From an uncultured Hormoscilla sp. (GTDB lineage Bacteria > Cyanobacteriota > Cyanobacteriia > Cyanobacteriales > Desertifilaceae), in NCBI GenBank assembly GCA_963921275.4, contig OZ001293.3, positions 2,880,001-2,944,000 of the forward strand: a DNA stretch of 64,000 nt, given 5' to 3'. The notes under the pieces are model-generated. The model saw only the letters and a list, made by a program, of their open reading frames with translations. It was not told where the DNA came from and ran no database searches. Positions 42,460-63,991 of this stretch are shown here, in pieces; the first letter of the stretch is position 1, and every line of letters starts with the position of its first letter. The translations under genes and the position numbers were made by a program.

Positions 42460-43752
42460 ATGAGAGTTGGTCTAAAAGCTGCCTTGAGTGATGCCAATGT
42501 TGATGAGCGATCGCCGAATAATCAGCGTCAGCTGGCGATTTCCGTAGAAGCGATAGCCTCCACTGACTTGTCCGGGTCGAGGTCTGTGCCCCTGAATTTG
42601 TGCCTCATTCTGGACCACAGCGGTTCCATGGGTGGGCGTCCTCTGAAAACGGTTAAACAGGCAGCCCAGCAGCTTGTAGACCGGCTGAACCCAGGCGATC
42701 GCCTCTCGGTAGTTGTCTTCGATCAGAGGGCGAAAGTAATAGTCCCCAATGGCGTGATTGACGACCCGCGCAGCATCAAGCGTCAGATCGACAAGCTGCG
42801 CGCGGATGGGGGAACTGCCATTGACGAGGGGTTGCGGTTGGGAATTGAGGAACTAGGAAAAGGCAAAAAAGATACAGTCTCCCAGGCATTTTTGCTAACT
42901 GACGGCGAAAACGAGCATGGCTCTAATGATAAATGCCTCAAATTTGCCAAGTTAGCAACGGAGTATAATTTAACCTTGAACACCCTGGGATTTGGCGCCC
43001 ACTGGAACCAGGATATTTTAGAAGCCATTGCTGATGCTGGGGGCGGTACAATGGCTTATATTGAGCGCCCCGAACAGGCGGTAGATGAATTTGGACGCCT
43101 GTTTAATCGCATTCAGTCTGTCGGGTTAACCAATGCCTACCTGCGCCTATCTCTGATGCCCAAGGTCCGTCTAGCGGAACTCAAACCTATTGCCCAGGTG
43201 TCCCCGGACGCGATCGAACTGGCAGTACAACCTGCGGAGTCCCCTGGGAGCGCTATTCGCACTACCTCGGGGACTCCGGAAGGAGATTTGTTCTTGGTGC
43301 GGTTGGGAGACTTGATGACAGGTGACCCGCGAGTGGTACTGGCAAACCTTTACGTCGGCCAGTTGCCCCTCGGAAGTCAGACGATCGCCCAAGTGCAAAT
43401 ACAATACTATGACCCCGCTTTCGGTCGAGAGGGTTTGCTATCGGAAACTCTCAGAGTTGAGGCAAATGTGGTCAGTGCTTACCAACCATCTATCAACCCA
43501 GAGGTGCAACCCCACGTGCTAGCTTTGGCTAAATATCGGCAAACTAAGCTGGCGGAAACTAGACTGCAACAGGGCGATCGCTCGGGGGCTGCCACCCTGC
43601 TGCAAACTGCCGCCAAAACCGCCTTGCAAATGGGTGACAAAGGCGCTGCTACAGTCCTGCAAGAGAATGCCACCCGCTTGCAATCAGGAGAAGAACTCTC
43701 CGATGAGGACAAAAAGAAAACCCGCATTGTCTCTAAGACGATTTTGCAGTAG
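42460..43752 (+). CDS. vWA-domain protein with a 45-nt in-frame hairpin insertion (43234-43278)
   Basis: LDHSGSM, LLTDGENEHG. Confidence 0.9.
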   Translation: MRVGLKAALSDANVDERSPNNQRQLAISVEAIASTDLSGSRSVPLNLCLILDHSGSMGGRPLKTVKQAAQQLVDRLNPGDRLSVVVFDQRAKVIVPNGVIDDPRSIKRQIDKLRADGGTAIDEGLRLGIEELGKGKKDTVSQAFLLTDGENEHGSNDKCLKFAKLATEYNLTLNTLGFGAHWNQDILEAIADAGGGTMAYIERPEQAVDEFGRLFNRIQSVGLTNAYLRLSLMPKVRLAELKPIAQVSPDAIELAVQPAESPGSAIRTTSGTPEGDLFLVRLGDLMTGDPRVVLANLYVGQLPLGSQTIAQVQIQYYDPAFGREGLLSETLRVEANVVSAYQPSINPEVQPHVLALAKYRQTKLAETRLQQGDRSGAATLLQTAAKTALQMGDKGAATVLQENATRLQSGEELSDEDKKKTRIVSKTILQ

Positions 43753-43944
43753 TTTTTCCAGGCTAGTCAATTAAGAATAAGAAACCAGGTTTTTACCGAA
43801 AACCTGCGTCTTGGCTTCTGGGCTACTCCAGCAAGCAACGATCGCGCTTACGATAACTTCTCTCTTCCCTAATCTTATAGGCGCGAAAGCGCCGGGTAAT
43901 CACTTTAGTGATTACTACAAACAGGTAAATACGAGAACAAACAG

Positions 43945-44280
43945 ATGCCTTCCCGAAAAGCCTATCAATTTATCCAAGTGCGAGTGGAATTAAAAGGACG
44001 AGGAGTAACTAATGAAATCGATACCCTTCATATCAATGGCAAAAACCTCAAACCGGGCTTAAAAACCTTGGATGCATTACTAAATTATCTGGGAACACAA
44101 GGCTTCCAGGTGGTAACTTCAAAAATGGCGAAAGAAACATTCTTTATCTACTTCTATACGCTGCAACGTGAAGTTTATACTCAAGAACCCCTCAAAGAAG
44201 ATATCCTTGAAACTATTGCTAATACTCAAACAGGGGCGAGTTTCGGTCATCCTGTCAAGGGTGCTTTCGATTTATTTTAA
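43945..44280 (+). CDS. Hypothetical protein
   Basis: ORF only. Confidence 0.5.
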   Translation: MPSRKAYQFIQVRVELKGRGVTNEIDTLHINGKNLKPGLKTLDALLNYLGTQGFQVVTSKMAKETFFIYFYTLQREVYTQEPLKEDILETIANTQTGASFGHPVKGAFDLF

Positions 44281-44360
44281 AATTAGGCTTTGCACAATCA
44301 AGAAAAGCCTAAGGTGCCCACCCTACTGCAAAGCCTAAGGTGCCCACCCTACTGCTGGGT

Positions 44361-45440
44361 TTAGGCGATCGCCTCTGCCTGGGGACGGGCAAAGACCATC
44401 CGACCAGCAGAAGTTTGCAGGGCCCCAGTTACAACTACTCGGACTTCGGCACCAATATGCTTCCCTGCATCTTCGACCACTACCATCGTGCCATCATCCA
44501 GATAACCAACACCTTGCTGGGGTTCTCTCCCTTGCTTGACAATTTTCAAATTGATGTAGTCTCCCGGGAGATAGGCCGGACGAATTGCTTGTGCCAAGTC
44601 GTTAACATTTAATACGGGCACCTTTTGCAAGCTAGCAACCTTGTTTAAGTTGTAGTCATTGGTCAACAGGGTAGCGTTGATTTCTTGGGCTAAATGCACT
44701 AACTTGGCATCCACTGTGTGAATCTCGTCGTAGTCAGCGGGGTGGATGACCACCCTTTCTGGGTAAGATTCTTTCAGTCGGTTCAGGATCTCCAAACCTC
44801 GCCGTCCCCGGATCCGTTTTTGATCGTTGGAAGAATCTGCTATTATTTGCAACTCTTGTAAGACGAAATGGGGCACCAGAATTTGACCTTCGATAAATCC
44901 AGTGGCGAATAGTTCCTCAATGCGACCGTCGATAATGCAACTGGTATCTATAATCTTGCTAGTTGCTGGCCTCATCGTGCCTTCTGCTAGCAACATGGTT
45001 TCCACGCTGTGGGGATTAATCAGTCTCAGAAAGGCGCGACCGTGGGTATCTGCCAGTCCCATGCCGGAGACGGCAAAAATGATACTGACTAAGACTGCTG
45101 CCAAGGGCTTAATGAAACTAAATTCCTTGGGAATTGGCAACAGGAAAATCGGTGCTAGCATTAAGTTTGCTACTAATAGCCCCATCACTAGGCCAGTGGT
45201 ACGGGTCAGCAGCACTTCTATCGACATCTGCCGGACTTGCCTTTCTAGGCGACGGTAGGAGGTTTGGGTCAGTAATCCTACGGCACCACCTATTATGCCT
45301 GAAAAACCGGCAGTTACCGATCGCAAGCCTTCTTGATTGCTGACTTGCTCTAGTGTATGGTGGGGTAGCAAGTCAATCCCGTGGAAACCGATACCCACTC
45401 CTGTGAGGACGAATACAACAACAATGATTGCATCAAGCAT
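44361..45440 (-). CDS. PIN/TRAM domain membrane protein
   Basis: IDTSCIIDGRI, TND.NLNKVA, GVGYLDDGTMVVVE, QTSAGRM.FA. Confidence 0.92.
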   Translation of the reverse strand: MLDAIIVVVFVLTGVGIGFHGIDLLPHHTLEQVSNQEGLRSVTAGFSGIIGGAVGLLTQTSYRRLERQVRQMSIEVLLTRTTGLVMGLLVANLMLAPIFLLPIPKEFSFIKPLAAVLVSIIFAVSGMGLADTHGRAFLRLINPHSVETMLLAEGTMRPATSKIIDTSCIIDGRIEELFATGFIEGQILVPHFVLQELQIIADSSNDQKRIRGRRGLEILNRLKESYPERVVIHPADYDEIHTVDAKLVHLAQEINATLLTNDYNLNKVASLQKVPVLNVNDLAQAIRPAYLPGDYINLKIVKQGREPQQGVGYLDDGTMVVVEDAGKHIGAEVRVVVTGALQTSAGRMVFARPQAEAIA

Positions 45441-45672
45441 AGTTATACCTTGAGGTTGGGTTTCCTAAGTCGGGTGGGAATTTCTCTGATAGCTGACAAG
45501 TCCCTACGCGAGGTTGACTTGAAAAAAGCCTAGCATAACCGGCTACAAGGAGATTCTACAGCCGGATATGCTAGGCCGCCGGAAAGTTCATTCCTTCTTT
45601 ACTCTATCACAAGTTCATCGGTATTGGCCTAGCTTGACCTCTATTATATCCCTCAGAGGAGGCAAAAACGAG

Positions 45673-46905
45673 ATGCTCCCAAACATAATAGATTCTGCCA
45701 TGCCTCGCGGAGCTTATCTGCATATTCCTTTCTGCCGCCGTCGGTGCTATTACTGTGATTTCCCGGTATCGGTGGTGGGCGATCGCACTTGGGGAGAGGA
45801 CTCGGGTACGATAATTCAATATATTCGTCTGCTGTGTGAGGAAATAAAAGCAACGTCGGTGTCGGCACAGCCCCTGTCAACGGTTTTCTTGGGCGGGGGG
45901 ACGCCGTCTTTGTTGTCGGTAGGGCAGTTGGCAGAAATTTTGCACGTGCTCGATCGCCATTTGGGCATTGCTGCTGGTGTGGAAATTTCTATGGAAATGG
46001 ACCCTGGCACTTTCGATCGGGTACAGCTGCAAGGTTATCACTCGGCGGGGGTGAATCGCGTCAGTCTGGGGGTGCAGGCATTTCAAGCAGAACTGCTGCA
46101 CTCAAGCGGGCGATCGCACTCGGTGACTGACATTTTCGCCGCTGTGGACTGTCTCGGGCAAGTCGGGGTAGAGAACTTCAGTCTGGACTTAATATCCGGT
46201 TTGCCCCACCAGACGATCGCTCAATGGCAGGAATCTCTGTCCAAAGTTGTGGCCATCGGGCCTACTCACATCTCCACTTACGACTTGGTGGTGGAGCCAG
46301 TTACGGCCTTTGGCCGCCAGTATGAACCGGGAGTAGCACCCCTGCCCCCAGAGGAGACGACTGCCCAAATGTATCGCCTCGCCCAGCAAGTCCTCACGGA
46401 CGCTGGTTACCAGCATTATGAAATTTCTAACTACGCCAGGCCCGGTTATCAATGTCGCCACAATCGGGTTTACTGGGAAAATCGCCCTTACTATGGCTTT
46501 GGCATGGGGGCCGCAAGTTATGTTAACCGGGTCCGCTTTACTCGACCTCGCAGGCGATCGGAATATTATCAATGGATCGCAGCCGGATGTGTAATTGATG
46601 ATACTGCCGTATCAGACCAGGATCTGTTATTGGAAACTTTGATGCTGGGGTTGCGCTTGGCAGAGGGTTTGAGTCTGGAAAGCCTGCGTCAGAGATTTGG
46701 GGAAGCAACCTTAGCACGAATTGGCACTTGCTTGGAGCCCTATAATCAGCAAGGGTGGGTGGAAGTTTTCGGGCAAAATGGGGAATGTTGTCTGGAACTG
46801 CCGAACTTGCCAGCAACTGGACGTTTGCGGTTAAGCTCGCCAGAAGGGTTTTTGTTCTCTAATACTGTGCTAGCGGACTTGTTTAGTCAGCTGGAGGTAG
46901 GGTAG
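45673..46905 (+). CDS. hemW: Radical SAM heme chaperone (HemN-like)
   Basis: YLHIPFCRRRCYYCDF, GGGTPS, YEISNY, HNRVYW. Confidence 0.9.
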   Translation: MLPNIIDSAMPRGAYLHIPFCRRRCYYCDFPVSVVGDRTWGEDSGTIIQYIRLLCEEIKATSVSAQPLSTVFLGGGTPSLLSVGQLAEILHVLDRHLGIAAGVEISMEMDPGTFDRVQLQGYHSAGVNRVSLGVQAFQAELLHSSGRSHSVTDIFAAVDCLGQVGVENFSLDLISGLPHQTIAQWQESLSKVVAIGPTHISTYDLVVEPVTAFGRQYEPGVAPLPPEETTAQMYRLAQQVLTDAGYQHYEISNYARPGYQCRHNRVYWENRPYYGFGMGAASYVNRVRFTRPRRRSEYYQWIAAGCVIDDTAVSDQDLLLETLMLGLRLAEGLSLESLRQRFGEATLARIGTCLEPYNQQGWVEVFGQNGECCLELPNLPATGRLRLSSPEGFLFSNTVLADLFSQLEVG

Positions 46906-47065
46906 GCGTCTCGCCCGCCCCAGAGGGAGAGGGTCTGCGGCGTCTTCCGCTCCAGACACCGAGCTCTTGTCCTGAAGGACTCGGCATGCTCCAGACACCT
47001 TCAACGCCTGGAGCATGCTCTTGTCCTGAAAGACGCGGCATGCTCCAGGCGTTGCCCTATCAATG

Positions 47066-47905
47066 CTACATCAATTGGTCGGGGTCAAGGTCGAGCGAGC
47101 GCAGATATTCTGCTAGCCGTTCGGCCCGTTGCCGTTCCCGTTCCAGCTCCAGCTCCTGCTGTGCCTGCTCAGCCCGTTGTCGTGCCTGCTCAGCCCATTG
47201 TCGTGCCTGCTCGGCCCGTTGCCGTTCGCTCTCAGCCCGTTGCCGTGCCTGCTCAGCAAACTCATCACTGGTCAGATATCTTCTTCCCTCTTGGTCGTAC
47301 CAATACACCCATTCCCTGCTCCTGCCTCGATATTTTCCCAGTTCCGTTCCTATTCCCAAGCCTATTTCTGGCAACCAGATGGGATTTCCTGACAGCAGTA
47401 TGTATGGTCCCCTTCTAACTTATACACTTCCAAAGGTTGATGGTCTGCATGGCGACTCCTTCGCCCCCGTCTTCCACTAGCGCTGGGACGGCAAAATGGA
47501 TTGTATATCACATAGTACAATGGCCCTAGTTCGGCATAATCTTCCATTTTTTGTCATACTCGCCCCCGTAAGTTTTGGATGCCACTTCCATCACCAAAAT
47601 TGGCACTATTCCCCTTTCTTCCCACACCAAGTAGCTGAGGCGCAGTTTTGTTGATTTTATCCGCTGTACTCCTATACTGAGAAATCCATCTGGGACTGGG
47701 GCTGGCTTTTCGGGGTGATAGTATATTCCCATATCTACTCCCCAAATCTAGTCATCTCGTTGGGCCCAGATCGGGATGATATCACGTTAGCAGCGTTGGG
47801 GATTAGGTTTTGCAATTCGTTGTCCACGGGCGTATCGTCTGAGTCGGGTAATTCTTCTGCTGTTGGCAGGCGTAATGTGGGAACGTATGACAGAAACTTC
47901 TTGAT
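47066..47905 (-). pseudogene. Uma2 family gene, frameshifted duplicate of 48024..49232
   Basis: Split over four ORFs. Confidence 0.85.
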
Positions 47906-48023
47906 GTCTAGTAGGTGGCAGTATACGCTTACATTCTTGAGCTGTGAGTATATTATCAATAGAACCCAGCCGGATGGGAGGTTGATTATGAGCCTATCCC
48001 ACAGCAGGAGCTATCCATCCATT

Positions 48024-49232
48024 TTAGATCAATTGGTCGGGGTCGATGTTTTGCGATCGCAGATATTCTGCCAGCCGTTCGGCCCGTTGCCGAGCTTGCT
48101 GAGCCCGTTGCCGTTCTTGTTCTACCTCCTGCTGAGCCTGCTGAGCCCGTTGCCGTTCTTGTTCCACCTCCCGCCGAGCCTGCTGAGCCCGTTGCCGTTC
48201 TTGTTCCACCTCCTGCTGAGCCCGTTGCCGTTCTTGTTCCACCTCCTGCTGAGCCCGTTGCCGTTCTTGTTCCACCTCCTGCTGAGCCCGTTGCCGTTCT
48301 TGTTCCACCTCCTGCTGAGCCTGCTGAGCCCGTTGCCGTTCTTGTTCCACCTCCCGCCGAACCTGCCGAGCCCGTTGCCGTTCTTGTTCCACCTCCTGCT
48401 GAGCCTGCTGAGCCCGTTGCCGTTCTTGTTCCACCTCCTGCTGAGCCTGCTGAGCCCGTTGTCGTTCTTGTTCCACCTCCTGCTGAGCCCGTTGTCGTTC
48501 TTGTTCCACCTCCTGCTGAGCCCGTTGTCGTTCCTGCTGTGCCCGTTGCCGTTCGAGCTCAGCCCGTTGTCCTTCGGTCTCAGCAAACTCATCACTGGTC
48601 AGATATCTCCTGCCCTCTTGGTCGTACCAATACACCCATTCCCTGCTCCTGCCTCGATATCTTCCCAGTCCTGTTTTTATTCCCAAGCCTATTTCTGGCA
48701 ACCAGATGGGATTTCCTGACAGCAGTATGTATTGGTCCCCTTCTAACTTATATACCTCCAAAGGTTGATGGTCTGCATGGCGACTCCTTCGCCCCCGTCT
48801 TCCACTAGCGAGCGGACGGCAAAATGGATTGTATATTACATAGTACAATGCCCCTAGTTCGGCATAATCTTCCATTTTTTTGTCATACTCGCCCCCGTAG
48901 GTTTTGGAGACCACTTCCATGACCAAAATTGGCACTATTCCCTTTTCTTCCCACACCACGTAGCTGAGGCGCAGTGCTGTTGATTTTATCCGCTGTACCC
49001 CGATACTGAGAAATCCATCGGGGACTAGGGCCGGTTTTTCGGGGTGATAGTATATTCCCATATCTACTCCCCAAAACCAGTCATCCCGTTGGGCCCAGAT
49101 CCGGGATAAGATATCGTCAGCGGCGTTGGGGATTAGGTTTTGCAGTTCGTTGTCCACGGGCGTGTCGTCTGAGTCGGGTAATTCTTCTGCCGTTGGTAGG
49201 CGTAATGTTGGATCGTATGACAGAATTTTCAT
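48024..49232 (-). CDS. Uma2 family endonuclease with long repetitive coiled-coil tail
   Basis: LPDSDDTPVDNELQ, PDGFLS; about 11 33/42-nt QERQRAQQ(AQQ)EVE units. Confidence 0.9.
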   Translation of the reverse strand: MKILSYDPTLRLPTAEELPDSDDTPVDNELQNLIPNAADDILSRIWAQRDDWFWGVDMGIYYHPEKPALVPDGFLSIGVQRIKSTALRLSYVVWEEKGIVPILVMEVVSKTYGGEYDKKMEDYAELGALYYVIYNPFCRPLASGRRGRRSRHADHQPLEVYKLEGDQYILLSGNPIWLPEIGLGIKTGLGRYRGRSREWVYWYDQEGRRYLTSDEFAETEGQRAELERQRAQQERQRAQQEVEQERQRAQQEVEQERQRAQQAQQEVEQERQRAQQAQQEVEQERQRARQVRREVEQERQRAQQAQQEVEQERQRAQQEVEQERQRAQQEVEQERQRAQQEVEQERQRAQQARREVEQERQRAQQAQQEVEQERQRAQQARQRAERLAEYLRSQNIDPDQLI

Positions 49233-49606
49233 GATGTCTAGGAAGTTGGGTGGCAATATCCTTACTATATCAGCAATCTTGCTTCGATGTGCGATGCGCA
49301 GTGCGAATAGCGCGCGCAGAGTACATCGAAGTGGGGCGCTCTCAAGCATGCAAATGTACGGGGTAGCCGTTACCTCCACCGGTGCAGCAGCTTGAGCCCG
49401 CCCAGGCGGGCTTAGTCAATGTAGCGATACCCTTGAGGGTATCGCGGCGCTAATTGTTCGTGTTAACTATTGAACAGTTTGCATCCATAACCTCTGGTGC
49501 ATCTGTTAATGTTGGTGGCAGTGGGGGCTGAGTGTAATCAATATGTACGTCCAGCCCTAAATATCCTTCCTCTGTATGGGTCTATATTAATGGTAAATTA
49601 GATTGA

Positions 49607-49715
49607 TGGCAAGCTGGTTGACTCCGAGGCGATCGCGCATAATTTCTCTGTTCCTAATTATAATCTGGTTGCCGCTGTCGTGCTATGGAGGACTGCATCT
49701 GCCGTCCCCCCAGAA
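49607..49715 (+). pseudogene. 5' fragment duplicated from the 52044 gene
   Basis: MASWLTPRRSR..LFLII vs MASWFTPRRSR. Confidence 0.8.
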
Positions 49716-49772
49716 CAAATCAAGAACATTCAGATTTGGGAGAAATGCGATCGCGCCTTTGTCTAGTTCCTA

Positions 49773-51623
49773 TTACTCAAATGCTGGATAGATATCGTTT
49801 TCAAAGATATCCTTAATCCAACCAGGCAAGAAGGAATACTTGGGATCGTAAACGTTAAGATCCGATCGCAGGTCTACTTTGTAAGTAGATGTTCGGGGAG
49901 CTATTTCCGGTATCCAAGCCGCGTGCAGGGGAAAAGCAAACTTGACCTCGGGATGCCGCAGTTTGGCAACGGGACCGGCAGCCAGATTTCCCGCCTGCCA
50001 AATCCAGAATTCCGAATATTCTGGGGTGGAGACCATAGCCACCAGATAACCTTCTAACTCATTATTCTGACCGAGCTTGGGAAAGTAAACCGTAGTGGTA
50101 ACGCAGGTTCCCCGAGGGGCAGCCCAGAAATCCTTTACTTCCATATCCCCAGGGGACCATCGCATCACCCCCGCTTCTTTCCATCGGGGTAGATCCTCTA
50201 TGGGAACTTCTCGGAACTCGTGGTGTTCGTACAGTTTCACCAAACGCCTGGGAGTAATTTCGCTGATGTAGCCAGTGAAATTCACCCAAAAATTTGCAAA
50301 CTCTGGGGGACTGGTTTCTTGAATGCCATTATAAGTAGGAAGGGCAATCCCCCAGAAGCGATCGGACAACTGGTATTTGCTGCTCTTTATTTCCCCCGTC
50401 TGGGCGTTGACCACGTATTTGCCGAATCCTTGCTGGTCGTAAACTCCCGGAGGCGAGCCATGGAAAGGCGCGCTTACCCAGTCATCAAATGTCGGCCAGC
50501 TCGCGTCCCATCGCCGGTTCCATTCACTCACATCGTGTCCGGAAGCATGCAATAAATGCAAGGTGACATCATCGTTGTCATCGTCATAGTTGGCAAAGAA
50601 GTGAACGCACTCCCGGGGGATCTCGACGTATTTGGCCCAAGCAGTAGCTATCTCTTCTTTTCCATCATTGAGCTGCGCTCTGGGCACAAACCAGACTTGG
50701 TTGTATGGGGACTGGGGCTTCGCTGGAGCACCGGGAATCATTATCCGATAATATTCCATGGTAAATGCCGTGTCAATGATGATGATATAATTGCGCGTGA
50801 CGGCAATTTGATGGGTTGACTGTTTAATTACCACTGGCTCTTTGGTGCGATCGTCGATAATCCGAGTAGTCTTAAATTTCCCGGTGCCATCCCAAACCTG
50901 TATGTAGGCATCGGGTTGAATGCTGCCTAGGGCAATGGGAATTTCAAAAATCGTATTGATGATGAAAATTTACCCGGTGCGATCGTCGTAAGCAGGATGA
51001 GCGGCGCTCATGTGCATGGGAAAGATCCAGGGAAACTTGATGTGCGGGATATTCGGGATGCCGTCAATCTCCATTTTCATCCACTCGGAGCGCTGGCCCA
51101 CCGGCGTGACGGGAGCGAAGGTGGTCGGATCGAAATCAAACGGACGGCCCGAGTCAATGGTAGCCATCATCCGCCAAGAACCATTGTCTGGGTCTTGAAA
51201 GGCTTGAAGGCCAGTATGACATTGGTTCTGCACTCCTAGGAACAGGTTAAGACGCGCCAAACCCATCTTGTTGCTAAACCGATAAGCCCTTCTCCAGAAC
51301 TTCCAGAAGGACTGCTCTTGAATTTTCAGATCGCAGATGATGGACGGTGTATGAAAAGGTCCGCTTTTTAGATGCACCCGATTTTTCGGGCCGTCCGCGG
51401 ACCGATCGCCTTTAAAGTCTAAGCGATACAACTGCCTGTAGCCATTAAACCAAGGGGTATCTCCCGCTTGGGGTGTAGGCACCATCCAAAATGCGTGTCC
51501 CGCCATGTCCGTAGGTATGGACCCCTCAATTGTATTGAGGTCCAGGTCGAGAAGTGCCGTGTTTTGGTAGCGGATGTGGGTGGGAAAATCGGGAGGACTC
51601 ATAAATTTAGCCTGCCAAAGCAA
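49773..51623 (-). pseudogene. Carotenoid oxygenase (RPE65) family gene with one in-frame TAA (50970-50972)
   Basis: Both ORFs in the same frame; four His (AHP, THQ, VHF, LHA); 24-nt insert 51381-51404. Confidence 0.75.
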
Positions 51624-51776
51624 TGACTACCAAACTATAGCACAGTCCTGAAATTATCACCCGGCAATGGTTCCCGCATAACTGAGTCAGGAGGCGATCT
51701 CATATAGTCAGCCAGCGCCCTCGTTGTGCGATCTTTAACAGACTCGCCAAAGTGCCGCTTGCTGGAAAAAAAGATA

Positions 51777-51971
51777 GGCTCTTCGTGAAATAGTATGCTC
51801 AATTATCATCAAAAAAGACATCAAAGCTTTGCCTCGTATAGGTTTGATGCGATTGCTGCTCTCGAACGACTAATCTGCACTGATCTGCAAGGCTCAAGCG
51901 CTGGAAGTCTTATTGGGAAAGGATTTCATGCAAATTAGCTATCATTTTAGCATACTAAATTGGGAAGAGCC
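51777..51971. mobile_element. 195-bp MITE (IS1/IS1595-like ends)
   Basis: Imperfect 23-bp TIR GGCTCTTC....A.TAGTATGCT; 8-bp target duplication AAAAGATA. Confidence 0.85.
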
Positions 51972-52043
51972 AAAAGATATGGTTGGAAGTTGTTACGAAT
52001 CTAACAAACCAGAGATAAAATACTTAATGGGTGATTTGAGATT

Positions 52044-52973: not shown

Positions 52974-53022
52974 TTTTGTTTATGCTAATATCCGATTAGT
53001 TGTCGTTCGCTGGCAGAGGTAA

Positions 53023-53277
<255 letters not shown>

Positions 53278-53285
53278 TCGAGACT

Positions 53286-54277: not shown

Positions 54278-54509
54278 GGCTATTAATCGATTTTTTTAAA
54301 ACATCTGCCAGAAATAGTTTGGCAATCTCAAATCTAAAATTTCAAATCGTCAATTCTTATCAAAAAATTTTTCACTCCCTAGCACTACGCGCACTTCGTC
54401 TCACAAAATGATATGTTTGTAAAGTTTCTTAACATGATTTTCATCTGGGATTCTGTATGATAGCGTAAGTTGTACCTTTGTCAACTCGGTTTCAAACAAT
54501 TTTCAGCCA

Positions 54510-56507
54510 ATGAACGAATTACTTTATCTGGAAGTTCCCACGCCCGATCGGGCGGCGGTAACGGCCTGGTTACAGCAGAAATACGATCCAGGCATGGGGG
54601 CCAAGCAGGTGGCTGCCGATGGCATCAGGCTGGAATTTGGTCAAAATGGTTCCCAACCCACAGCAGAACTCTCGATATTTGTCTGGTCGGTGCAGCGAAC
54701 GACATACTTAAAGGTATTTCGTTGGTCAGACAGACCTTTCAAGCAGGAAAAACAGTTAATTGCCAAACTCCGTGCCGATCTCAGAGATAAGTTTCCCTAT
54801 CAATATCCCGAACCGCCAGCGATTAACCTTCAAGAGCAAACTATCTTTGAGGCCCTGATTGGCCAGTACCCCATGACAGTCAAGTACTTTCAGAAAATGC
54901 CCAGGGGCGATTATCATCTCCAGCGGGTATATTGGTGGGAGCAACGTTGGCGTCAAAGCGTCTGCAACCCCCATAAACCTCAACAAGTAGTTTTTCCCCA
55001 GCAGCAAACAGCACCCAAAACAGAGTACGACCTGATATATATTGGGGGTGCATTAGGGGCGATCCATGCAGCAAGAATGGCCCGGTTGGGTTATCGGGTG
55101 CTGCTGATCGAACGCTTACCCTTCGGACGGATGAACCGAGAGTGGAATATTTCCCGGGATGAGTTTCAAAGAATAATTGACCTGGGTTTGTTTACTCCAC
55201 AGGAGTTTGAGGAGATCATTGCCCGGGAGTATATTGATGGATTTAATAAATTCTTTGATGGTAACAACCCCAGCCACTTAAGAGCAAAAGTTTTACATAC
55301 CCCAAGGGTGCTGAATGTGGCCTTAGACTCGGAGAAATTTTTGGACCTCTGCGGACAAAAGCTGCGGGACGCGGGGGGAGTTATCTGGGATGAAACTGAG
55401 TTTATCCGGGCAGATGTATCTAAAGATAATGTCCTAGTTCGCCTGCAACATCTACCCACAGGGGAACAACGTCAAGCAACAGGACGCCTGCTAGTGGATG
55501 CCATGGGTACCGCTTCCCCGATCGCCTGGCAGCTGAACGGCGGGCGTACCTTCGATAGTGTTTGTCCTACCGTCGGAGGGGCGATCGCCAGTGGTTTTGA
55601 ATCGGGAGTCTGGGATTCTGATTACGGGGACGTACTCAATTCTCATGGAGACATTTCCCGGGGACGACAGTTAATTTGGGAATTATTTCCCGGCGCCGGA
55701 GAGGAACTGACGATTTATTTGTTCCATTACCATCAGGTCCATCCTGATAATCCCGGATCTCTATTAGAAATGTATGAAGATTTCTTTACAATTCTCCCCG
55801 AATATCGTCGCTGCGATATGGACAAGCTAGTCTGGAGAAAGCCCACCTTCGGCTATATTCCCGGTCACTTTTCCGTCGGCAGTCACGATCGCGCGATCGC
55901 CTGCGATCGGATCCTCGCCATTGGCGACGCCGCCTCACTCCAGTCACCCCTAGTCTTCACCGGTTTTGGCTCCCTCGTCAGGAATCTGCCCCGTCTGACT
56001 GTACTTTTAGATACAGCCCTTAAGCATGACCTCTTGTCAGCCCAACATTTAAATCAAATCCGGGCTTACCAAAGCAACGTCGCCGTCACCTGGCTATATT
56101 CCAAAGGCATGATGGTGCCTACAGGTCGCCACTTGCCCCCGGAACGGATCAATTCCATGCTGAATACCTTCTTTGGCCTGCTAGCAGAGGAACCGCCAGA
56201 AGTAGCAGACACCTTCATTAAAGACCGTACAGACTGGCTGACCTTTAATCGACTGGCCCTGAAAGCAGCTTTCACGAACCCGGCCCTGTTACTGTGGATT
56301 TGGGAAATGGCTGGTGCCAAGGATATGCTGCGTTGGTTAGGCAGCTACTTCAGCTTCACCCTCAGCGCCTCAGTCAACTTGTTGCTGGGGGGCTGGTTTC
56401 CTAGCTTCACCCGCTGGTGTCAGCCTTGGTTAGAACGGAAGTATCCCGCCCTGTGGCTGCGAATGCTGACTGTCAGCTACGGACTTACTACTGTAATGAA
56501 ACAGTAG
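54510..56507 (+). CDS. cruA: CruA-type lycopene cyclase
   Basis: 665 aa; LYLEVPTPD N-terminus, YIGGALG, MNREWNIS, GDAASLQSPLVFTGFG. Confidence 0.8.
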   Translation: MNELLYLEVPTPDRAAVTAWLQQKYDPGMGAKQVAADGIRLEFGQNGSQPTAELSIFVWSVQRTTYLKVFRWSDRPFKQEKQLIAKLRADLRDKFPYQYPEPPAINLQEQTIFEALIGQYPMTVKYFQKMPRGDYHLQRVYWWEQRWRQSVCNPHKPQQVVFPQQQTAPKTEYDLIYIGGALGAIHAARMARLGYRVLLIERLPFGRMNREWNISRDEFQRIIDLGLFTPQEFEEIIAREYIDGFNKFFDGNNPSHLRAKVLHTPRVLNVALDSEKFLDLCGQKLRDAGGVIWDETEFIRADVSKDNVLVRLQHLPTGEQRQATGRLLVDAMGTASPIAWQLNGGRTFDSVCPTVGGAIASGFESGVWDSDYGDVLNSHGDISRGRQLIWELFPGAGEELTIYLFHYHQVHPDNPGSLLEMYEDFFTILPEYRRCDMDKLVWRKPTFGYIPGHFSVGSHDRAIACDRILAIGDAASLQSPLVFTGFGSLVRNLPRLTVLLDTALKHDLLSAQHLNQIRAYQSNVAVTWLYSKGMMVPTGRHLPPERINSMLNTFFGLLAEEPPEVADTFIKDRTDWLTFNRLALKAAFTNPALLLWIWEMAGAKDMLRWLGSYFSFTLSASVNLLLGGWFPSFTRWCQPWLERKYPALWLRMLTVSYGLTTVMKQ

Positions 56508-56825
56508 GGTGGGCACCGCCTACCATCGGCCATGGGACTGTGGAAAATGCACGGCTGCGCCCCACAATCACTCACGGGAGCGGCAGCCATGCGGCGTCTT
56601 CCGCGTACTCTTGTCCTGACCGCGCTAGCGTGGCGCCAGCCATAGGACATCGTTTGCGTCCGCGCAGCGTGCGCGCAGCGCATAGACGCTTCGCGGACGG
56701 TACGCGAGAGACACCGTAGCGCCATCAGGAGTCGCGGTAACAAGAATTATCCCTCGTTCCCTCGTTCCTAGGGTCTCCCTGGGAACGAGCAGTCCTCGCA
56801 AGCACTCTTGGTGCTTACTACGAGC

Positions 56826-59739
56826 TTAGAACACTTCCAGATCGAAAGGGACGAAACTTCCATTCAACTCGTCTGGTGCCACCCGGTTAACCATGCCTAA
56901 AATCAGATTGGAGTCGGCAATTGTGATCATAGTATTGGTGCCCAATGATTCTAGAATTATATCATCTGAAGTTAATCCACCCGTTAGCCCGATCGCATCT
57001 TCTGCCACCTGAAAGTCCACGAGGACATCAACTTGCGATCTGTTAACCACTGCTGCCTCAGGGGACAGGACGAAAATATCACTGCCCGGACCGCCCAGGA
57101 GAATATCTTGACCAGATCCGCCATTGATAGTATCGTCTCCTGCACCGCCCTGGATGAAGTCATTTCCTCGACCTCCAAGGAGTTCGTCATCGCCCATACC
57201 GCCAGTCAGGCTGTCGGCACCGGGACCAGCAAAGATAATATCATCCCCTGACATGCTATCGATCGTATCGTCCCCGCCAAAGGAGATAATTAGATCGTTC
57301 TCAGGGGTGCCCATCAGCATATCGTCCCCTGGGTTCCCTCGGATCAGATTTACAAACTCCGGTGGCGGTTTTACATCACCACCGGAAATGAAGAATTGGG
57401 CCTCTTCCCAAACCGCCTCGCCCACGTTGCGCCCGAGGATTAATCCCTCTTCGTTCCCAGCAAAATTATGAATCCCACCATAGAGGCAAGAGATCCCCGA
57501 CGATGTTGCTGCATCGGAAAAGGTATCCCAACTCAGAGTCACCGGTTCGGCGGGCGTGATTCCCGGTTCAAACAAAGACTCTCCAGCAGGTGCCGTCACC
57601 GAAGCCCCAAATTGATCGCTACCTGTAAACCGCTGGAGAACTTCCGCCGCAGCGCTGCTGAAGGCACTGTGTCCCGATACATATTCAGCCAAGGGAGGAG
57701 TGGGACTTTCCAAGCGCTGGTAAGGGATAAATTCCGATCCATCTAGTTCGACAGTGCCCTGTCCCGGACCGCCCCAAGCTTCGATAGTTTGACCGCCAAA
57801 CAGAGCCTCGATCGCCGTGATCGGACGCACGTAATCATAGAATACTTTTGCTTCCCAGGCCACAATCCCCGCATCCATGACAGCGTTACCCAACATGAAG
57901 AACATCTTGGCGTCTTCATCCAGGGTGTTATCGTCCCGTTCGGAAACGAACTGGCCAAAACCCATCCAGGTACCGGGAGGAAAGGATGATCCCGGTCCAT
58001 CTTCCCAGAACTCCGCAACAATTTTGCGCTCGTCGTTGAGGTTGGCGCTGATCTCGATAACTTCCTCATGCAGCGTCAGGAACTCCTCGCTGCCAAACTC
58101 CGGCGGTGCTGGGGGTCGGAATTGGTCCCCTGATTCTAGTCCAAAGGGAATCACTTCGCCCCACTGAGGGGTGAGGAACTGTTGGACTGTGCCATCTGGG
58201 TCGCGCAAAGGTTGCAGCAGGGGTTGCCAGCGGTTCGGATCGACGATCTCCTCTCCCTGGGGAGGATTTACTGGCTCGTAACCCGTATAGTCGGAGTAGG
58301 GCAGACCATCATTTGGATGGGGTCGAGCCGGGAATCGCTTCCCGACCCTCCCTTGAGGAACCGGACTTGCGATTTTCACCGCATCCGGCTACTGGGTACT
58401 AGGCCCTTTTCATAGGTAGACTTAATAGGAATTACTTCCGTTAGCCCTTGCCGCCTGTCTTTTCTTCCCTTTCCTGGTTTAGCGAGTGGTTGTTCTGATA
58501 ACCGTTAGTATCACCATTTTCAAGTCAGTTTTACCAGTTATCCATACCTTATCCTCCACTTGCGTTTCGGATTAGTTCCGTGGCTTTTTAGGATTACTCA
58601 TTCCAGCAGCTTCCTAGTATCACCGACCCACGTCAGCACTGGCTACCCAGCATCATCTACATTACTGTAGATGTTATCCCAGGAATTACCCCGGGCATTC
58701 GCTTCTTGGGCCATCCCTCCCCCCGTGGCTTGCGCTTAACATCTAACTTGTCCTGATGGACAGCACACGAGAGGTTACTTCGTTCCCTAACAACATTTCG
58801 CGATACCTTTAGGTCCACACTATACCCCGGGAGCTATTTGAGTACTATATTAGCCAGAGTCTAAAACTAATACTAGCTACCATTTCCTTTTTAGGCCAGC
58901 GCATATAGCCTTATTTCGCTGGTTCCTTATAACGAGGCTTGCACATGTTTGCCTGCTCTAACCTTGGATATCTTTCCTAGCGGCGTCACCGGCTTAGGCT
59001 GCCAGTTATCCTACATTTGAGTCCTCGCTTAGCACCACGATGATGTCGCTTCGTAGCACCGAGGACCGGTGTCACCCCCGTACCTGGGGGGAGGGGAATT
59101 TAACCCCCATGCGGTCAGAGTTCCCGGCTAATGAAACCGGGCTAGCGTTCCGTGTTTGACCACGTTAGGCTAGAACGAATCGCACAGATCCCCTAACTGG
59201 TTGGAACCGTCGTTGCGGCGAAAGTCGAGTAATGCCTGGGCCGAGACATTGCCAATGCCTGCGGGGGTAGAGTTGTTGTCTGGGTCTAGGCCCAGTTGTT
59301 CCATGAGGCTATCGAACAAATCTACCTCTGTGGGAAACAGGTCTTCCAGCACCCGATAGGCCGCATAACTCATGGCCTCGGTTTTGTTTTCCAGGGTATT
59401 TTCCTCGGCGGGCCGTTGCAGGTCGTCACCCAACTGGGTGCCGATGGCCTCTGGGTCGTATGCTGCCCAGGCATCGAAGATCGCCGTATGCACCATCCCG
59501 TAGGCGCGGGAGGCGATCGTCGGTCCTACACCTAAATTGCGGACTGCTTGCTGTGCCGCCTCATCCCACAAAACCGAGGGCGTTATCTCTTCGGTCGCAT
59601 CAGTCAGGGTCCTGTCGGGGTTGAGCCAAAAAATCCCTATGGGTTCCCCGTCCACTTCGCCGAAGGAGACGGGACTGATACCAACACCGTTTATCCATCC
59701 TAGGCCGTCATTGGTGAGTTCTATTTCGATCGGATCCAT
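56826..59739 (-). CDS. Vanadium haloperoxidase-like/PAP2 protein with RTX Ca-binding repeats, interrupted by a group II intron; may be a pseudogene
   Basis: GPTIASRA, DGSNQLG | YSDYTGY, K..YDYVRP, EYVSGHS, YGGIH; GGxGxD repeats. Confidence 0.8.
58317..59185 (-). mobile_element. ORF-less group II intron (about 869 nt)
   Basis: 5' GTGCGATTCG; domain V AGCCGGATGCGGTGAAAATCGCAAGTCCGGTT; domain VI with bulged A 7 nt from the ..CCCCAT end; no RT ORF. Confidence 0.92.
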
Positions 59740-59800
59740 AATTTTCTGCTTGCGAATTTTTCATTGAGAATTGTTAATTGCCATTAGGGTAGTTTGGCCG

Positions 59801-60859
59801 TTAGCCATTACCTCCAATGGTCAATATGCGGCGAATTTCATCAGTTTTGAAGCCGATCGCCATTGGCCGACGCACCCCTGGCAAGATTGCCACGTCATAC
59901 AATTCCTCTACTACACCTTCTATCCGCAACCAATGTACGATATCCCCTGTGCGCAGGTCAATAACTAACAGTCCGCAGCGGGGTTCGGCATCTCTAGTGG
60001 AGAGGTTTTCATCTAAAGGCAGGCTCGAAAATGTCTTGTTATTTCTCGGTTTAGATATGCCCACCACTGCAAAGTTACGGCTAAAGGCACAGCCCCGCAA
60101 GTATCCCGGACAGAATGTCACCGCTTCAAAGGTTAAACTCTTCAGGTCTGCATAACCAAAGAAACCCGTACCCGAGTTTAACAGCCACAGTTTCTTCTGA
60201 TGCCAGCGGGGCGAGTGGGGCATGGAAAGCCCGGTAACGATCGCCTCATTGCTGCTGACATCTATGACGCATCCCCCGGAAACCCTGCGATCGCGCCACC
60301 CATCAGCTACATCACTTTGACTGACAGCAGTAACGTATTTTGCCTGACCATTTTGCATAGCTAAGCCATTCAGGTGACATCTATCTTCAGCAGCAAGTCG
60401 GGAAATAAAAGGTGGTTGCCAGAGGGGAATAAAACTATGCTCTTCACTTACGGTCGCCAGACAGCCAAATAATGTATTGACAAATATAATCTTTCCTGTT
60501 TTATCTACAGCCACATCATGAACATCCAAGTCCCCAGTAATGTAACCGACTTGGGGCACGAGCAAGCAGTCATAACCATTATGAACCTGTCCGGGTTGCA
60601 GTGCATTTTGAAATCGCCACAGTTGATACAGTACGCTCATGTAAAGCCTGGAACTATCTGCTCACAAGCCCATACATCGCTCGAAAGTGCGTTCAAATAC
60701 TGATAGTCGCCCGTCTGGTTGCAAACCGATCAGAAACAGTTTACCTGCTTGATAGGTGGTGAAGGCCAGACTGATGTTTTGCTCCCCTAACCAGGCGGTA
60801 AACTGGCGGGAACAGTTAATTTCTAGGGATGGAATTGAGGTTGGTTGTGGTTGTGTCAC
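59801..60859 (-). pseudogene. TIGR03032 family protein, frameshift near 60660
   Basis: SLAFTTYQAGKL, FERCMGL, EDRCHLNGLA, MPHSPRW. Confidence 0.85.
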
Positions 60860-60987
60860 TTCAGTTGGTTTGCGTTCTACTAAGGATTATTATAACACAA
60901 ATGTGCGCGGATTCGCTGTTAGCCCGCTGGGGATTCTCAACTTTGAACGGTATATTGTATAATGGAGATGTCGTTGTTTCTGAATGC

Positions 60988-61275
60988 ATGACTATTGCAT
61001 GCGCTGCGCGCACGCTGCACGATCGAGTCGGCGAACAATATCAAATCACGATTCCCGATCACGCAGCGCGGCGCAGCCGTGGATGTGCGAGAATGGGGCT
61101 AAAAACAGGTGATTCCCTGGATGTGAAAGTCATCGATGGGGCTCTGGTTATGGTACCGTTTTCGGTAAAACCCCTAAGTCATACGGAGCGAATTTTTGGA
61201 AAGCATCGTGGGTTGTGGTCTGGAGAGGATGCAGTGGCTTATATTCGTAAAGAACGGGAATCATGGCGAGACTAG
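60988..61275 (+). CDS. AbrB/MazE-like antitoxin carrying two micro-insertions
   Basis: YQITIP..GLKTGD; YIRKERESW. Confidence 0.7.
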   Translation: MTIACAARTLHDRVGEQYQITIPDHAARRSRGCARMGLKTGDSLDVKVIDGALVMVPFSVKPLSHTERIFGKHRGLWSGEDAVAYIRKERESWRD

Positions 61276-61640
61276 AAGAACTCGAAGTGATAGAATTGCC
61301 TTGGATAGCTTCATCTTTATTTACGGTTTTTAAGGTAACCCACAATTTGGAGAACGAGCTAAAAAGATTTTTTCCCAAGATTGAGCAGGGACAATGTCTT
61401 GGCTTCCCTTGCGATCTTGTTCTGGCTGAATTGATAGTCAAACCATTGCGAGAAGGACGATTGGAGATTGCCGTTCGCGCAGCGCGGCGCAGCCGTAGGA
61501 TACGCTCGCGATTTGACAAGTTTTCCGAACTTGAACTTTGTCTGCCTAACCCAGGCAATTGTTATTGCTGCCGCCGGTTTAAGAGGAAGATGCTTCTTTG
61601 CATCTTCCTGATGTCGGTTTGGATATTTGGATGTTGACAG
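61263..61640 (+). pseudogene. PIN-domain toxin, decayed; frameshifted by a 22-nt insertion
   Basis: LAELIVKPLREG; removing 61474-61495 gives EIAVGYARDLTSFPNL. Confidence 0.65.
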
Positions 61641-62117
61641 ATATTGAAGACTAAAATCAACTCAGAGATTTGATGCGAAAATATGTCGGATCAGAAACCA
61701 GGTTTATTCGAGAAATATGGTTTATAAATCTGCGGTTGATTTATCCAGAATATGAGTGCGATCGCCATTATCGCGTCTCAATCCTATATTTTTCTAGGTA
61801 ACAATTTTATCAGATAACAAACTGATAAAATTCAGATTTTAATCTCGAGCATAAAAAGATATCAAAATCCTTGACAATTACAATTTAAACTATCTATATT
61901 TAAAATGGCAATTCTAAAAATGAGAAAACTCCAATGCCCGAGACAAAACGATCAAATAACCGCCCCCATTCGGGGGCTGCTCCTAACTGAAAATCGCCGG
62001 TTGATTGCTGGCCGGAGATCGGGTATTGGAGACTCTTTTTTCTAACCGGTTGGCTAAGCGGTCAAAAAATTATGGCGCACAGAGATCCAGGCGATCGGGT
62101 TGGATATTTGCTGATTT

Positions 62118-62154
62118 AAAAAGCCCGGTTTCTCCTGCGAAACCGGGCTTTTTC
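62118..62154. terminator. Bidirectional intrinsic terminator-like hairpin
   Basis: AAAAAGCCCGGTTTC-TCCTGC-GAAACCGGGCTTTTT. Confidence 0.7.
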
Positions 62155-62734
62155 CTATGGAACTTCGATATAGTATAAGGTAACCCATAATTGGGCGATC
62201 GCCCTAAAAAGATCTACTGATTCACGAGCACTCTGCGCCCGCGAGACCAGCTAAGAAAGCCAGTTTTTTGTCAAAACTGGCTTTCTGGGGTACTGGGGAG
62301 ATACCCTCAATACTTCTCGGTTAAGCAATAAATTCGGAGTGGGGAGTGGCTTACAGGGGTATGTTTTTTAGATTTCGGTCAATACTTCAAGGTTTTGCAT
62401 TTTATTTGTCATTGCGAGGGGGGGGAGGTTGATTGTCACTACCCTTTGGCCCAGATCCCATCCAGTTTGTAACTTGAGGTAATTTTCTGCGAAAAAGTTG
62501 AGCTTTGGACCGATACCTCTGTAGAAGGAGCTCACGGGGTCTTGTTGGAACCGGTTGCTTCCCTGAGGTTGAGTTCAAATATTTCGTGGAGATTTTCTAT
62601 GTCAGGCAAATACGTGAAAAAGCTGGCGATCGGAGCGGACTGGAACCGGAAGTTGAAGATGGGTGCAGCTCATTTGTAGTTGCATTAGTAGAGCAATTTT
62701 AGACTCTGGTCGGTATTTGTGCCTACCGGCTTAT

Positions 62735-63991
62735 TCATCGGGGAAAAGTTGGCAAGTCAATTGCGGCCAGGGACTTAATCTTCTTGTGGGGACGGAGGGG
62801 ATAAACTAGAGGAGAGGGGGACTTTGTAGAGGAAAGCAGGGACAACGTCTCGGCATCCACCGTGCCGGAAAAATCGGAACCCCCCTCTGAGGCTTGCTCT
62901 TCGCTTTGGTGGCTTTCTTGCTGCTCAAAGATAGATGCAACGTCGGAAAGTGAGTCCTCTGGAGTTTGCTCATTCCCTATGCTTGAAGAGTTATCTACTG
63001 CTGCTACTGTCTCATCAGTCAAGTCCTCACCAACTTCAGAATACTCATCCTCTAATTGTTCCGAGACCGAAGCCATTACCGATAACTCATTTTCAGGGGA
63101 AGCGAGTTCCTCTGAGACTGCGGACTCTGATACCCCAAGGGTTTCTCTGGGTCGATCCTGCTGTGAGACGGGGGCGCGAACGCTGCGCGAAAAATCGACA
63201 GTAGGAGTATCGGCAGATATCTGCCAGTAGTCAGGCTCACCCCAAGCCTGCCCAGGTACTGCATCCGACTCTTCTGGATCGAGATATAATTCAAGTTCTG
63301 CTAATTCAGATGCTGCTGACCAGGGTTGAATTGCTGGCGCTTTCGGGACAACTCCCTGTACGATCGCTCTGGTATCTGTTTCCTGTTGAGTGCTCCGACC
63401 CACCGTTCCGGAAAAATTAGCCGGTTGTTCCGGACCCGTCATCTCCAGGCATTTGTCCAGGGCATTTTTGAATTGCAGGGTGTAGCGTTGCTGCCGGTAC
63501 AGACGCGATCGCAAATCCCGGCAAATCGTTTCCGCTTGGGAAAGCTTAGTTGTCTGTTCCTCGTAGCGTTGCTGAGTAAGAGCACAATCTCGTTCCAACT
63601 GGGCCACTTGTTGTTGGTTAGTTTCCAACTGCCCGCGGAGTGTTTCTATGAGAATTTGTTGGCGAACCGTTCCGGAAAAATCGGAAGTTTGCTGGCCAAG
63701 TTCCTTTTCCTGCTGCACCTGAGAGTGCTGTTTTTTCAAGCTATGCAGTTCTGCGGACTGCTCGGAGAGTTTGGCCTCTTGAGCTTGACAATGCTCCTGA
63801 TATAGCTGCAATTGCCTTTGAGCAACTGCCAGTTCTGATTCTAACTGCATTACCCGATCGATCAAATCCGTGTTTGACTCTACCCGTACTTCTGCCGATG
63901 TCTGGTCGGTGTCTCCGGAGTAGTGCGAGTAGCGCTCTCCGGAGACACCGAAGATGTCTACCGTTCCGGAAAAATCGGGGTTTTCGCGCAC
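62735..63991 (-). CDS. Cyanobacterial coiled-coil protein carrying six in-frame micro-insertions; 5' end may lie outside the window
   Basis: RQQILIETL, LERDCA, LRSRL.RQQR.TLQFK.AL.KCL; C-terminal SPSP..YP.RP.K..KSLAAIDLP.F. Confidence 0.8.
   Translation of the reverse strand: MRENPDFSGTVDIFGVSGERYSHYSGDTDQTSAEVRVESNTDLIDRVMQLESELAVAQRQLQLYQEHCQAQEAKLSEQSAELHSLKKQHSQVQQEKELGQQTSDFSGTVRQQILIETLRGQLETNQQQVAQLERDCALTQQRYEEQTTKLSQAETICRDLRSRLYRQQRYTLQFKNALDKCLEMTGPEQPANFSGTVGRSTQQETDTRAIVQGVVPKAPAIQPWSAASELAELELYLDPEESDAVPGQAWGEPDYWQISADTPTVDFSRSVRAPVSQQDRPRETLGVSESAVSEELASPENELSVMASVSEQLEDEYSEVGEDLTDETVAAVDNSSSIGNEQTPEDSLSDVASIFEQQESHQSEEQASEGGSDFSGTVDAETLSLLSSTKSPSPLVYPLRPHKKIKSLAAIDLPTFPR

Follow-up and report, generated by a model that had tools for sequence, protein, structure and literature searches.

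The small dispersed repeats (SDRs) SDR4, SDR5 and SDR6 of Nostoc punctiforme and its relatives were reportedly described by Elhai et al. in 2008 as hairpin-forming dispersed repeats of 21-27 nt. To our knowledge, how repeats too small to encode anything move has been an open question since these Nostoc repeats appeared in that year. Very small mobile hairpin repeats also occur as the mobile GC clusters and double-hairpin elements of fungal mitochondria, which land in coding regions as well. Here, a 44-nt hairpin element is described from Hormoscilla, a genus which, unlike that of the SDR hosts, is not known to form heterocysts. The window analysed is a stretch of 64,000 nt (C1:2880001-2944000) from a genome of 7.03 Mb (G000), in which three hairpins share the loop GCGCTAYTCGCACT. 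Relatives from the genus (G002, G003 and G004) were used for comparison.

With the SDRs the element shares a cyanobacterial host, very small hairpin repeats, compensatory changes, nesting in its own copies, presence in a mini-transposon, restriction to one clade and the lack of a linked transposase. SDR5 is reported to insert inside HIP1 (PMC4390886). REP and REPIN sequences are likewise short palindromic repeats in hundreds of copies, with compensatory hairpin changes and a proposed asymmetric intermediate (PMC3116915, PMC3733652, PMC6006769). The Rickettsia palindromic element (RPE) is similar in that a palindrome inserts in frame into unrelated genes, a peptide is added and the gene is kept (PMC10969869). 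Miniature transposable elements with inverted repeats (MITEs), e.g. Nezha in cyanobacteria, are also non-autonomous, with inverted-repeat ends and many copies, sometimes inside genes (PMC3733652, PMC10969869). Template switching at quasipalindromes (imperfect inverted repeats) is an established process, and it too alters several bases in one step (PMC7202029, PMC3820800).

The hairpin family and its insertion sites

Three hairpins with a shared loop and inverted-repeat flanks had been claimed in the window. All three lie where they were placed and fold as hairpins.

43235-43278 (+): hairpin copy 1; arms 43235-43248 and 43265-43278, 16-nt loop 43249-43264; loop GCGCTAYTCGCACT at 43250-43263 (+), inverted-repeat flanks
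49282-49331 (-): hairpin copy 2, GCGC-stem subfamily (by sequence and fold); loop GCGCTAYTCGCACT at 49300-49313 (-), inverted-repeat flanks
63907-63950 (-): hairpin copy 3, in frame in the open reading frame (ORF) 62735->64000(-) and translated as ..GVSGERYSHYSGD..; loop GCGCTAYTCGCACT at 63922-63935 (-), inverted-repeat flanks
43231-43275 (+): 45-nt insertion in the vWA gene (42304-43752, +), adding 15 residues
63908-64000 (-): window part of a composite insertion holding copy 3, empty in relatives

Folded as single-stranded DNA, copies 1, 2 and 3 reach -15.5, -15.7 and -20.0 kcal/mol (z of -4.5, -3.3 and -8.0 respectively), and for each copy none of 200 shuffles folded as well. The final 3 nt of the right arm of copy 1 (CCG) are, by junction analysis, target DNA that was already present. 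With up to 2 mismatches allowed, the loop is found 4 times in the window; 100 shuffles yielded 0.53 matches on average, and no shuffle reached 4. The fourth match (54382-54395, 2 mismatches) was attributed to chance, its flanks being without complementarity. An Rfam search of 42000-64000 at E <= 1 returned no family matching the hairpins. Among contigs from public runs, one of X1 is identical to the window across 43001-46992 and a contig piece of X4 begins at 43276, the right edge of insert 1; neither has a bearing on polymorphism or RNA.

Across the genome, the exact loop occurs 154 times (79 forward, 75 reverse) and its reversed control not once. At least 11 of 16 flank positions form ungapped Watson-Crick pairs in 101 of the 154 copies, compared with 7 of 5000 random positions, so that most loop copies do have complementary flanks, the opposite of what would have refuted the claim. 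The looser loop GC[GA]CTANNNGCAC gave 476 matches, every one of which lies on the main contig, while its reversed pattern gave 6. Of the 476, 263 have 10 or more of 14 flank positions paired, and of the 6 control matches none does. The reading of one loop position as Y was too narrow, for the three bases in the middle of the loop are free to vary (CTC 112, ATC 82, TTC 73, GTC 40, AAA 34, CGC 29). The 3' continuation of the loop falls into the classes TACCC (198), AAAAG (71), TACTC (51) and TGCGC (17).

In a strict set of 234 copies, pairing is kept over 14 positions and drops to 125/234 at position 15 and 64/234 at position 16. The unit is therefore a 14-bp stem with a 16-nt loop, 44 nt in all, and the loop usually reads A-GCGCTANNCGCAC-TA. 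The left arms are diverse, with 137 distinct ones among the 234 copies, and neither conserved terminal inverted repeats nor a parent insertion sequence was found. Copies often nest within each other, and they also nest within a 225-nt MITE.

Filled and empty sites carry the evidence for insertion. The vWA gene encodes a VWA-domain protein (Pfam), and all 11 orthologues are without the 15 inserted residues; these include 4 same-genus sequences, which are 94-95% identical. In the DNA alignment of the 4 same-genus orthologues, the empty site reads GTACAA|CCGGAAGG and G000 carries a clean 45-nt insertion, whose placement is ambiguous by 2 nt (CC), such that 43233-43277 is equally good. The segment AESPGSAIRTTSGTP, whose presence in the orthologues would have refuted the claim of an insert, is found in 0/11 of them. 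As a separate observation, the orthologues L003 (G003) and L004 (G002) have an unlike insertion of 24 nt (RLRCAHAT), also in frame, which begins some 55 codons downstream from the filled site and probably represents another small repeat family.

The composite insertion with copy 3 is about 156 nt (52 codons) long, extends about 60 nt beyond the window end, and consists of this hairpin and a second hairpin bearing nested mini-repeats. It is missing at the orthologous site in 3 of 3 relatives: L126 (G003), L128 (G002) and L129 (G004). For copy 2 a clean empty site was not found; G004 and G002 share the left arm of the element only and then diverge. This copy falls in codons 1-32 of the open frame 48024-49379(-), whose Uma2 domain (residues 95-221) lies downstream of it. 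"Upstream of Uma2" is thus correct as a description, and the association looks incidental.

Paralogous repeats within the genome add many filled/empty pairs. The 225-nt MITE holds one hairpin in all 7 copies compared and a second hairpin of 47 nt in 2 of the 7. A 133-nt triple nest (L240) is inserted at GCGC|TATT of a host loop. From the relatives, 146 copies were retrieved (26 + 60 + 60), of which 81 have orthologous flanks in G000 (48/86 and 33/60), and these 81 gave further clean empty sites. What inserts is the whole element, 43-49 nt long and with both of its arms, and it does so in unique DNA as well as in other repeats and in copies of itself. Origin of the stems by inverted duplication of flanking DNA was rejected: the empty sites are without both arms, and the target supplies at most the outer 1-5 bases. 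The MITE itself has the terminal inverted repeats CAATAGTCCGGAC...GTCCGGAGTATTG and occupies seven C1 loci of G000 (e.g. 1142897-1143120); it has at least 7 copies, and further copies exist without the hairpin insert.

The family is confined to one genus among the genomes searched. The element is in all five Hormoscilla genomes, with exact-loop counts of 154, 22, 52, 56 and 89, a 7-fold spread. The exact loop has 1 match in total in 26 other relatives, and the 16-mer has a single match in 1 of 400 other genomes of the class, so that the family was essentially not found in these 26 + 400 cyanobacterial genomes outside the genus. One genome per species was scanned as well, and the 80 loci among the matches listed (L015-L094) were all examined. 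Among these listed matches, 26 loci are from Hormoscilla sp., with a mean of 11.2/14 paired flank positions, and 50 are from other taxa, with a mean of 3.84/14, which is the level of chance. Also among the listed matches, L015, L053, L063 and L094, all in one metagenome-assembled genome (MAG) of an uncultured Cytophagaceae, carry the 16-mer within an unrelated repeat. This MAG repeat contains it four times, in the context ..AATTGGCTAATAGC-AGCGCTATTCGCACTA-TTTTTT.., and looks like a coincidence of sequence.

Carriage by phage was considered and rejected; 7 single matches in viral contigs all have 1-7/14 paired flank positions, as expected by chance. The six small contigs of G000 hold no copy of the hairpin loop where about 10 would be expected by length, and they may be plasmids or DNA of another organism. 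In one of the G000 contigs, C3 (31,420 bases), G+C makes up 17.6%, whereas the chromosome has 47%. No mention of such repeats turned up in a term search of the Hormoscilla genome paper (PMC6520454), its supplements being outside the search.

A second, smaller dispersed repeat with the core ACCGTTCCGGAAAAATC was seen alongside. It has 233 genome matches at up to 1 mismatch against 0 for the reversed control, and it is also nested within arms of the hairpin element. The ORF 62735->64000(-) contains a DFSGTV-like peptide five times, four of which map to ACCGTTCCGGAAAAATC matches (up to 2 mismatches). In the window it was located by sequence match as follows.

62859-62875 (+): second repeat ACCGTTCCGGAAAAATC
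63402-63418 (+): second repeat ACCGTTCCGGAAAAATC
63666-63682 (+): second repeat ACCGTTCCGGAAAAATC
63960-63976 (+): second repeat ACCGTTCCGGAAAAATC
26113-26129 (+): second repeat ACCGTTCCGGAAAAATC

Copies inside genes

Gene context was taken from open frames. By this measure 66 of the 234 copies (28%), in both orientations, lie in open frames of at least 200 codons, compared with 2585 of 5000 random windows. Coding DNA is thus depleted of the family about two-fold, and the family is far from excluded from it. Of the six frames through the element, five are mostly open, with the readings SA[TNI]RTT, ERYSHY, ALLALP, VVR[LVI]AL and SA[SNT]SAP. The remaining frame, an antisense one, contains a stop in 177 of 177 copies, and no copy uses it. 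Most frequent among the readings is SA[TNI]RTT, a small, polar one that is also the reading in the vWA protein.

Inserts at unique loci are multiples of 3 in 9 of 11 cases (45, 48, 60, 90 and 102 nt), whereas this holds for 3 of 15 inserts embedded in repeats. Insert length therefore varies at birth and the reading frame acts as a filter. A copy inside a gene survives if it adds whole codons and is read in any of the five open frames. About a quarter of the copies lengthen proteins by some 15 residues, and the family thereby supplies the proteome of this uncultured sponge symbiont steadily with small insertions. To gene callers and in homology searches, these copies will look like unexplained indels.

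The hairpins might be functional sites kept by selection, e.g. RNA stabilisers or terminators, protein-binding sites, or signals for recombination or replication. In favour of this are the strong conservation of the loop, the stability of the hairpins and the persistence of the family in five genomes. This explanation is nevertheless very improbable. At most of the loci examined, close relatives differ in whether they have the copy, more than a quarter of the copies sit within long open frames in both orientations, and copies are nested in one another and in the MITE. No T run follows the stem, the copies keep no constant place with respect to genes, and searches of sister genera did not find the family. 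The original prediction spoke of a structure-recognised mobile or regulatory element. Its mobile part stands on the empty sites, the nesting, the limit to one genus and the spread in copy number; the regulatory part is not borne out by the positions just described.

Covariation and pairing of the arms

Compensatory covariation had been claimed from three stems, and it is real across the family. Each stem position shows 3-4 types of Watson-Crick pair; at position 4, for example, GC occurs 86 times, TA 80 times and CG 59 times. Covariation was measured on 317 distinct rows with no flank filter, so as not to select on pairing, and with shuffled and slid controls. Paired cells make up 63.7%, against 45.1% in column shuffles (maximum 46.7%) and 24-31% with slid partners. 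The covariation score is 0.285; shuffles score 0.081 (at most 0.099), and slid partners score 0.04-0.06. Arm differences between nearest neighbours are compensated in 133 cases, one-sided in 118 and of other kinds in 21, a ratio that is far too rich in compensation for independent decay. Mismatches in the stems are G:T in 42 cases and A:C in 67, with no G:T excess; the pairing rule is therefore strictly Watson-Crick.

A conserved loop, free stem sequence and kept pairing are what would be predicted if a structure-specific enzyme (of the HUH/Y1 or RAYT kind, or an unrecognised nuclease or recombinase) moved the single-stranded hairpin by recognising its structure and loop, such that only well-paired copies stayed substrates. 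REPIN hairpins, with their common compensatory changes and asymmetric putative intermediate, offer a parallel (PMC3116915). Two observations on the arms speak against such an enzyme. Imperfect arm pairs propagate unchanged: the identical imperfect pair is found at different sites, at locus L222 of G004 and at 6165521 of G000. Compensated changes also arise in resident orthologous copies. Taken with the joints described below, these make movement by a structure-specific enzyme improbable.

Rebuilding of the second arm at each transposition was also considered, and rejected in view of the identical imperfect arm pairs at different loci. What happens to resident copies was seen at 12 orthologous loci filled both in G000 and in a relative. 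Five are identical, 2 have one-sided differences, 2 have indels, 1 has a compensated pair and 2 are switches of loop class. The compensated change, a C..G to T..A pair at L082, occurred in place. The loop-class switches, TACCC versus AAAAG, are at L018 and L091. At L257 the copies of G000 and G004 are identical and that of G002 has an inverted sub-hairpin, CCCCAGAGGGGG versus CCCCCTCTGGGGG. One class of left arm bears a direct copy of the right arm. As read from the sequences, these changes at orthologous loci are marks of short-range quasipalindrome template switching.

In the mechanism proposed here, a point change in one arm would be copied onto the other arm in place by template-switch correction, and the corrected variants would then seed further copies. 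That the arms stay complementary and yet diverge among copies through such templated correction in place is, judged from the copies compared, an evenly balanced proposition. Because the arms are copied faithfully and templated changes occur in place, kept pairing need not reflect selection for a recognised structure, and selection for a structure recognised by a protein need not be the sole cause of the pairing. For these reasons, and with no enzyme linked to it, the description of the element as structure-recognised is conjectural. The conserved loop would most likely be the part needed by the copying machinery or by a putative loop-binding factor. If templated arm correction is true, covariation tools could take DNA palindromes for selected RNA structures.

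Joints, mode of spread and comparison with known systems

The joints were taken from 18 clean single-unit filled/empty events with inserts of 44-49 nt, a set in which three loci are counted twice and two rows are misregistered. The left end of the insert extends 0-5 bases beyond the 14-bp stem, often as (C)TTCG, and the right end varies from 3 bases short to 1 base over (-3 to +1 nt). In 6 of the 18 events the palindrome goes on for 3 nt or more into right-flank DNA that was already there, as compared with 1.6% when flanks were swapped between events. At the left flank no true continuation was seen in the 18 events, a single score there being a misregistered row, and no target consensus was found among them. 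Junction ambiguity is 0-2 nt and differs between events; therefore there is no fixed target duplication. This anatomy is at odds with a transposase that makes fixed cuts and agrees with synthesis from one end followed by rejoining at microhomology.

The variable ends and the lack of a fixed target motif or duplication also count against the structure-specific enzyme. Candidate genes for it do exist, as the genome has two matches to the Y1 transposase (Y1_Tnp, PF01797), one intact and one apparently broken. No loop copy (up to 2 mismatches) lies within about 2.5 kb of either match, and the intact RAYT-like gene has unrelated GTAG repeats of its own. That gene (C1:241639-242259) is followed by a tandem array of its GTAG-tagged repeats (TGTAGCCCTAC..TTTAGGGTTGGGGCGA..) and forms with them a classical REP/RAYT pair unrelated to the hairpin family. 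A conserved unpaired GTAG/CGTC end tag was not found in the hairpin element: the ends vary, and the sole GTAG-like word is inside the loop, antisense and in CTAC copies only. Nor was a chromosomal orientation bias found, which again disfavours the enzyme; each tenth of the chromosome holds roughly as many plus as minus copies, GC skew being weak and the replichore bounds uncertain.

A parasite of reverse transcription was considered as well. Elhai et al. in 2008 are said to have proposed RNA intermediates for the SDRs. A short hairpin RNA trimmed to the base of its stem would be copied by one of the many reverse transcriptases of group II introns; the enzyme would begin by jumping to this template from a nick or break, and the cDNA end would be rejoined by microhomology, as at the 5' junctions of long interspersed elements (LINEs). 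The genome has 93 matches to RVT_1, about 60 of them full length, which would suggest plentiful reverse-transcriptase activity. One insert end is complete and the other ragged with microhomology, and insertion is independent of orientation, both as this route would predict. Against it, the mismatches show no G:T wobble excess on either strand, the copies show no nearness to introns and the inserts have no untemplated tail. This route is quite unlikely, rather less probable than the structure-specific enzyme. Proximity to reverse transcriptases was examined as a possible sign and set aside; 26 of 234 copies lie within 5 kb of an RVT_1 match compared with 8.2% of random positions, and the copies were not judged closer.

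The sole Rfam matches in 42000-64000 are to a group II intron domain (RF00029, 44.4 bits) at 58317-58393(-) and, overlapping it, a weaker, sub-threshold one to a plastid group II domain 5. A stretch of about 0.9 kb (about 58300-59200), at whose edge the RF00029 match sits, has dozens of copies in relatives and very high contig depth in public runs. The neighbouring ORF 56826-58379(-) encodes a protein with VCPO_2nd and RTX repeats and not a reverse transcriptase.

The explanation preferred for the whole is that the hairpins are a non-autonomous mini mobile element of about 44 nt, restricted to the genus, and we hold this to be somewhat probable. Its spread would be by copy-and-paste through a template-switching polymerase and not by a cut-and-paste transposase. 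A DNA polymerase acting at a stalled hairpin could serve for this, as could any of the many reverse transcriptases of the genome. The left end of the insert would be made complete with 0-5 extra bases, and the ragged right end would be joined where 0-5 target bases continue the palindrome. As judged from sequence, this mode of spread falls a little short of an even chance. The joints point to polymerase template switching and away from a classical transposase.

Several points weigh against this explanation. Its mechanism is drawn from the anatomy of the joints alone, with no polymerase, intermediate or enzyme linked to it. Microhomology of at least 3 nt at the right flank is found in only the 6 events given above and is absent in 9 of 18, in a joint set weakened by its double-counted loci and misregistered rows. 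The right end of the donor was deduced from the left end of the insert, symmetry being assumed. Donors with "unusual" outer stems exist elsewhere, therefore target-matching bases of the left arm may reflect the choice of donor and not templating. Multi-base switches (TACCC/AAAAG; CTCTTGGGA/CTCGCGAAGGCC) recur at many loci and could equally be gene conversion between copies. The orthologous filled loci compared number 12, 5 of them identical. The copies are no nearer the 93 reverse-transcriptase matches than random positions are, there is no wobble signal for an RNA stage (with G:T below A:C), and gene context was judged by open frames and not by annotation.

A bolder form of the template-switching explanation, a self-correcting palindrome, is doubtful, although less so than either enzyme-borne route above. 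No transposase would be involved; a polymerase, possibly the product of one of about 90 reverse-transcriptase genes, would jump to the hairpin, the ends would be rejoined by microhomology, and the arms would be kept paired by template switching and not by selection. If this is true, compensatory covariation is made mechanically and covariation in DNA palindromes is no evidence of function, and the movement of the smallest known mobile DNAs is explained.

The comparison with known systems sets the element apart from each of them. The fungal GC clusters differ in being organellar and are unrelated in sequence. As for the SDRs, the element at 44 nt falls outside their size of 21-27 nt, has no observed HIP1 target, and is frequent as in-frame copies in genes. 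Its ragged microhomology joints apparently lie outside the SDR description, the two systems being set apart here by descriptions and not by sequences. The IS200/IS605 type differs in that the Hormoscilla element has no fixed short target word and no replication-strand bias. No RAYT gene is flanked by the element, unlike in the REP system.

REP sequences conserve their arms and an unpaired GTAG/CGTC tag, whereas the Hormoscilla element conserves the loop and varies the arms; REPs are extragenic, in contrast to the 28% of Hormoscilla copies in long open frames (PMC3116915, PMC3733652, PMC6006769). RPEs are about 100-150 bp long with one conserved peptide, and their host is an obligate intracellular alphaproteobacterium, whereas the Hormoscilla element, with its 44 nt, has a third of that length and five different frames in which it is read (PMC10969869 for the RPEs). 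MITEs measure 70-300 bp and have conserved terminal inverted repeats matching a parent as well as a fixed target duplication, none of which is seen in the Hormoscilla element (PMC3733652, PMC10969869). Quasipalindrome mutagenesis is known from reporter genes of E. coli and yeast, and here it is proposed for hundreds of natural mobile hairpins (PMC7202029, PMC3820800). As a data set, the Hormoscilla family offers hundreds of copies, five genomes, many filled/empty differences and base-level joints, and thereby makes the question of movement testable. Within the SDR, REP and RPE kind of repeat, what is new in this element is that the loop is conserved and the arms are free, that the joints are ragged and show microhomology, and that genes frequently hold copies in frame.

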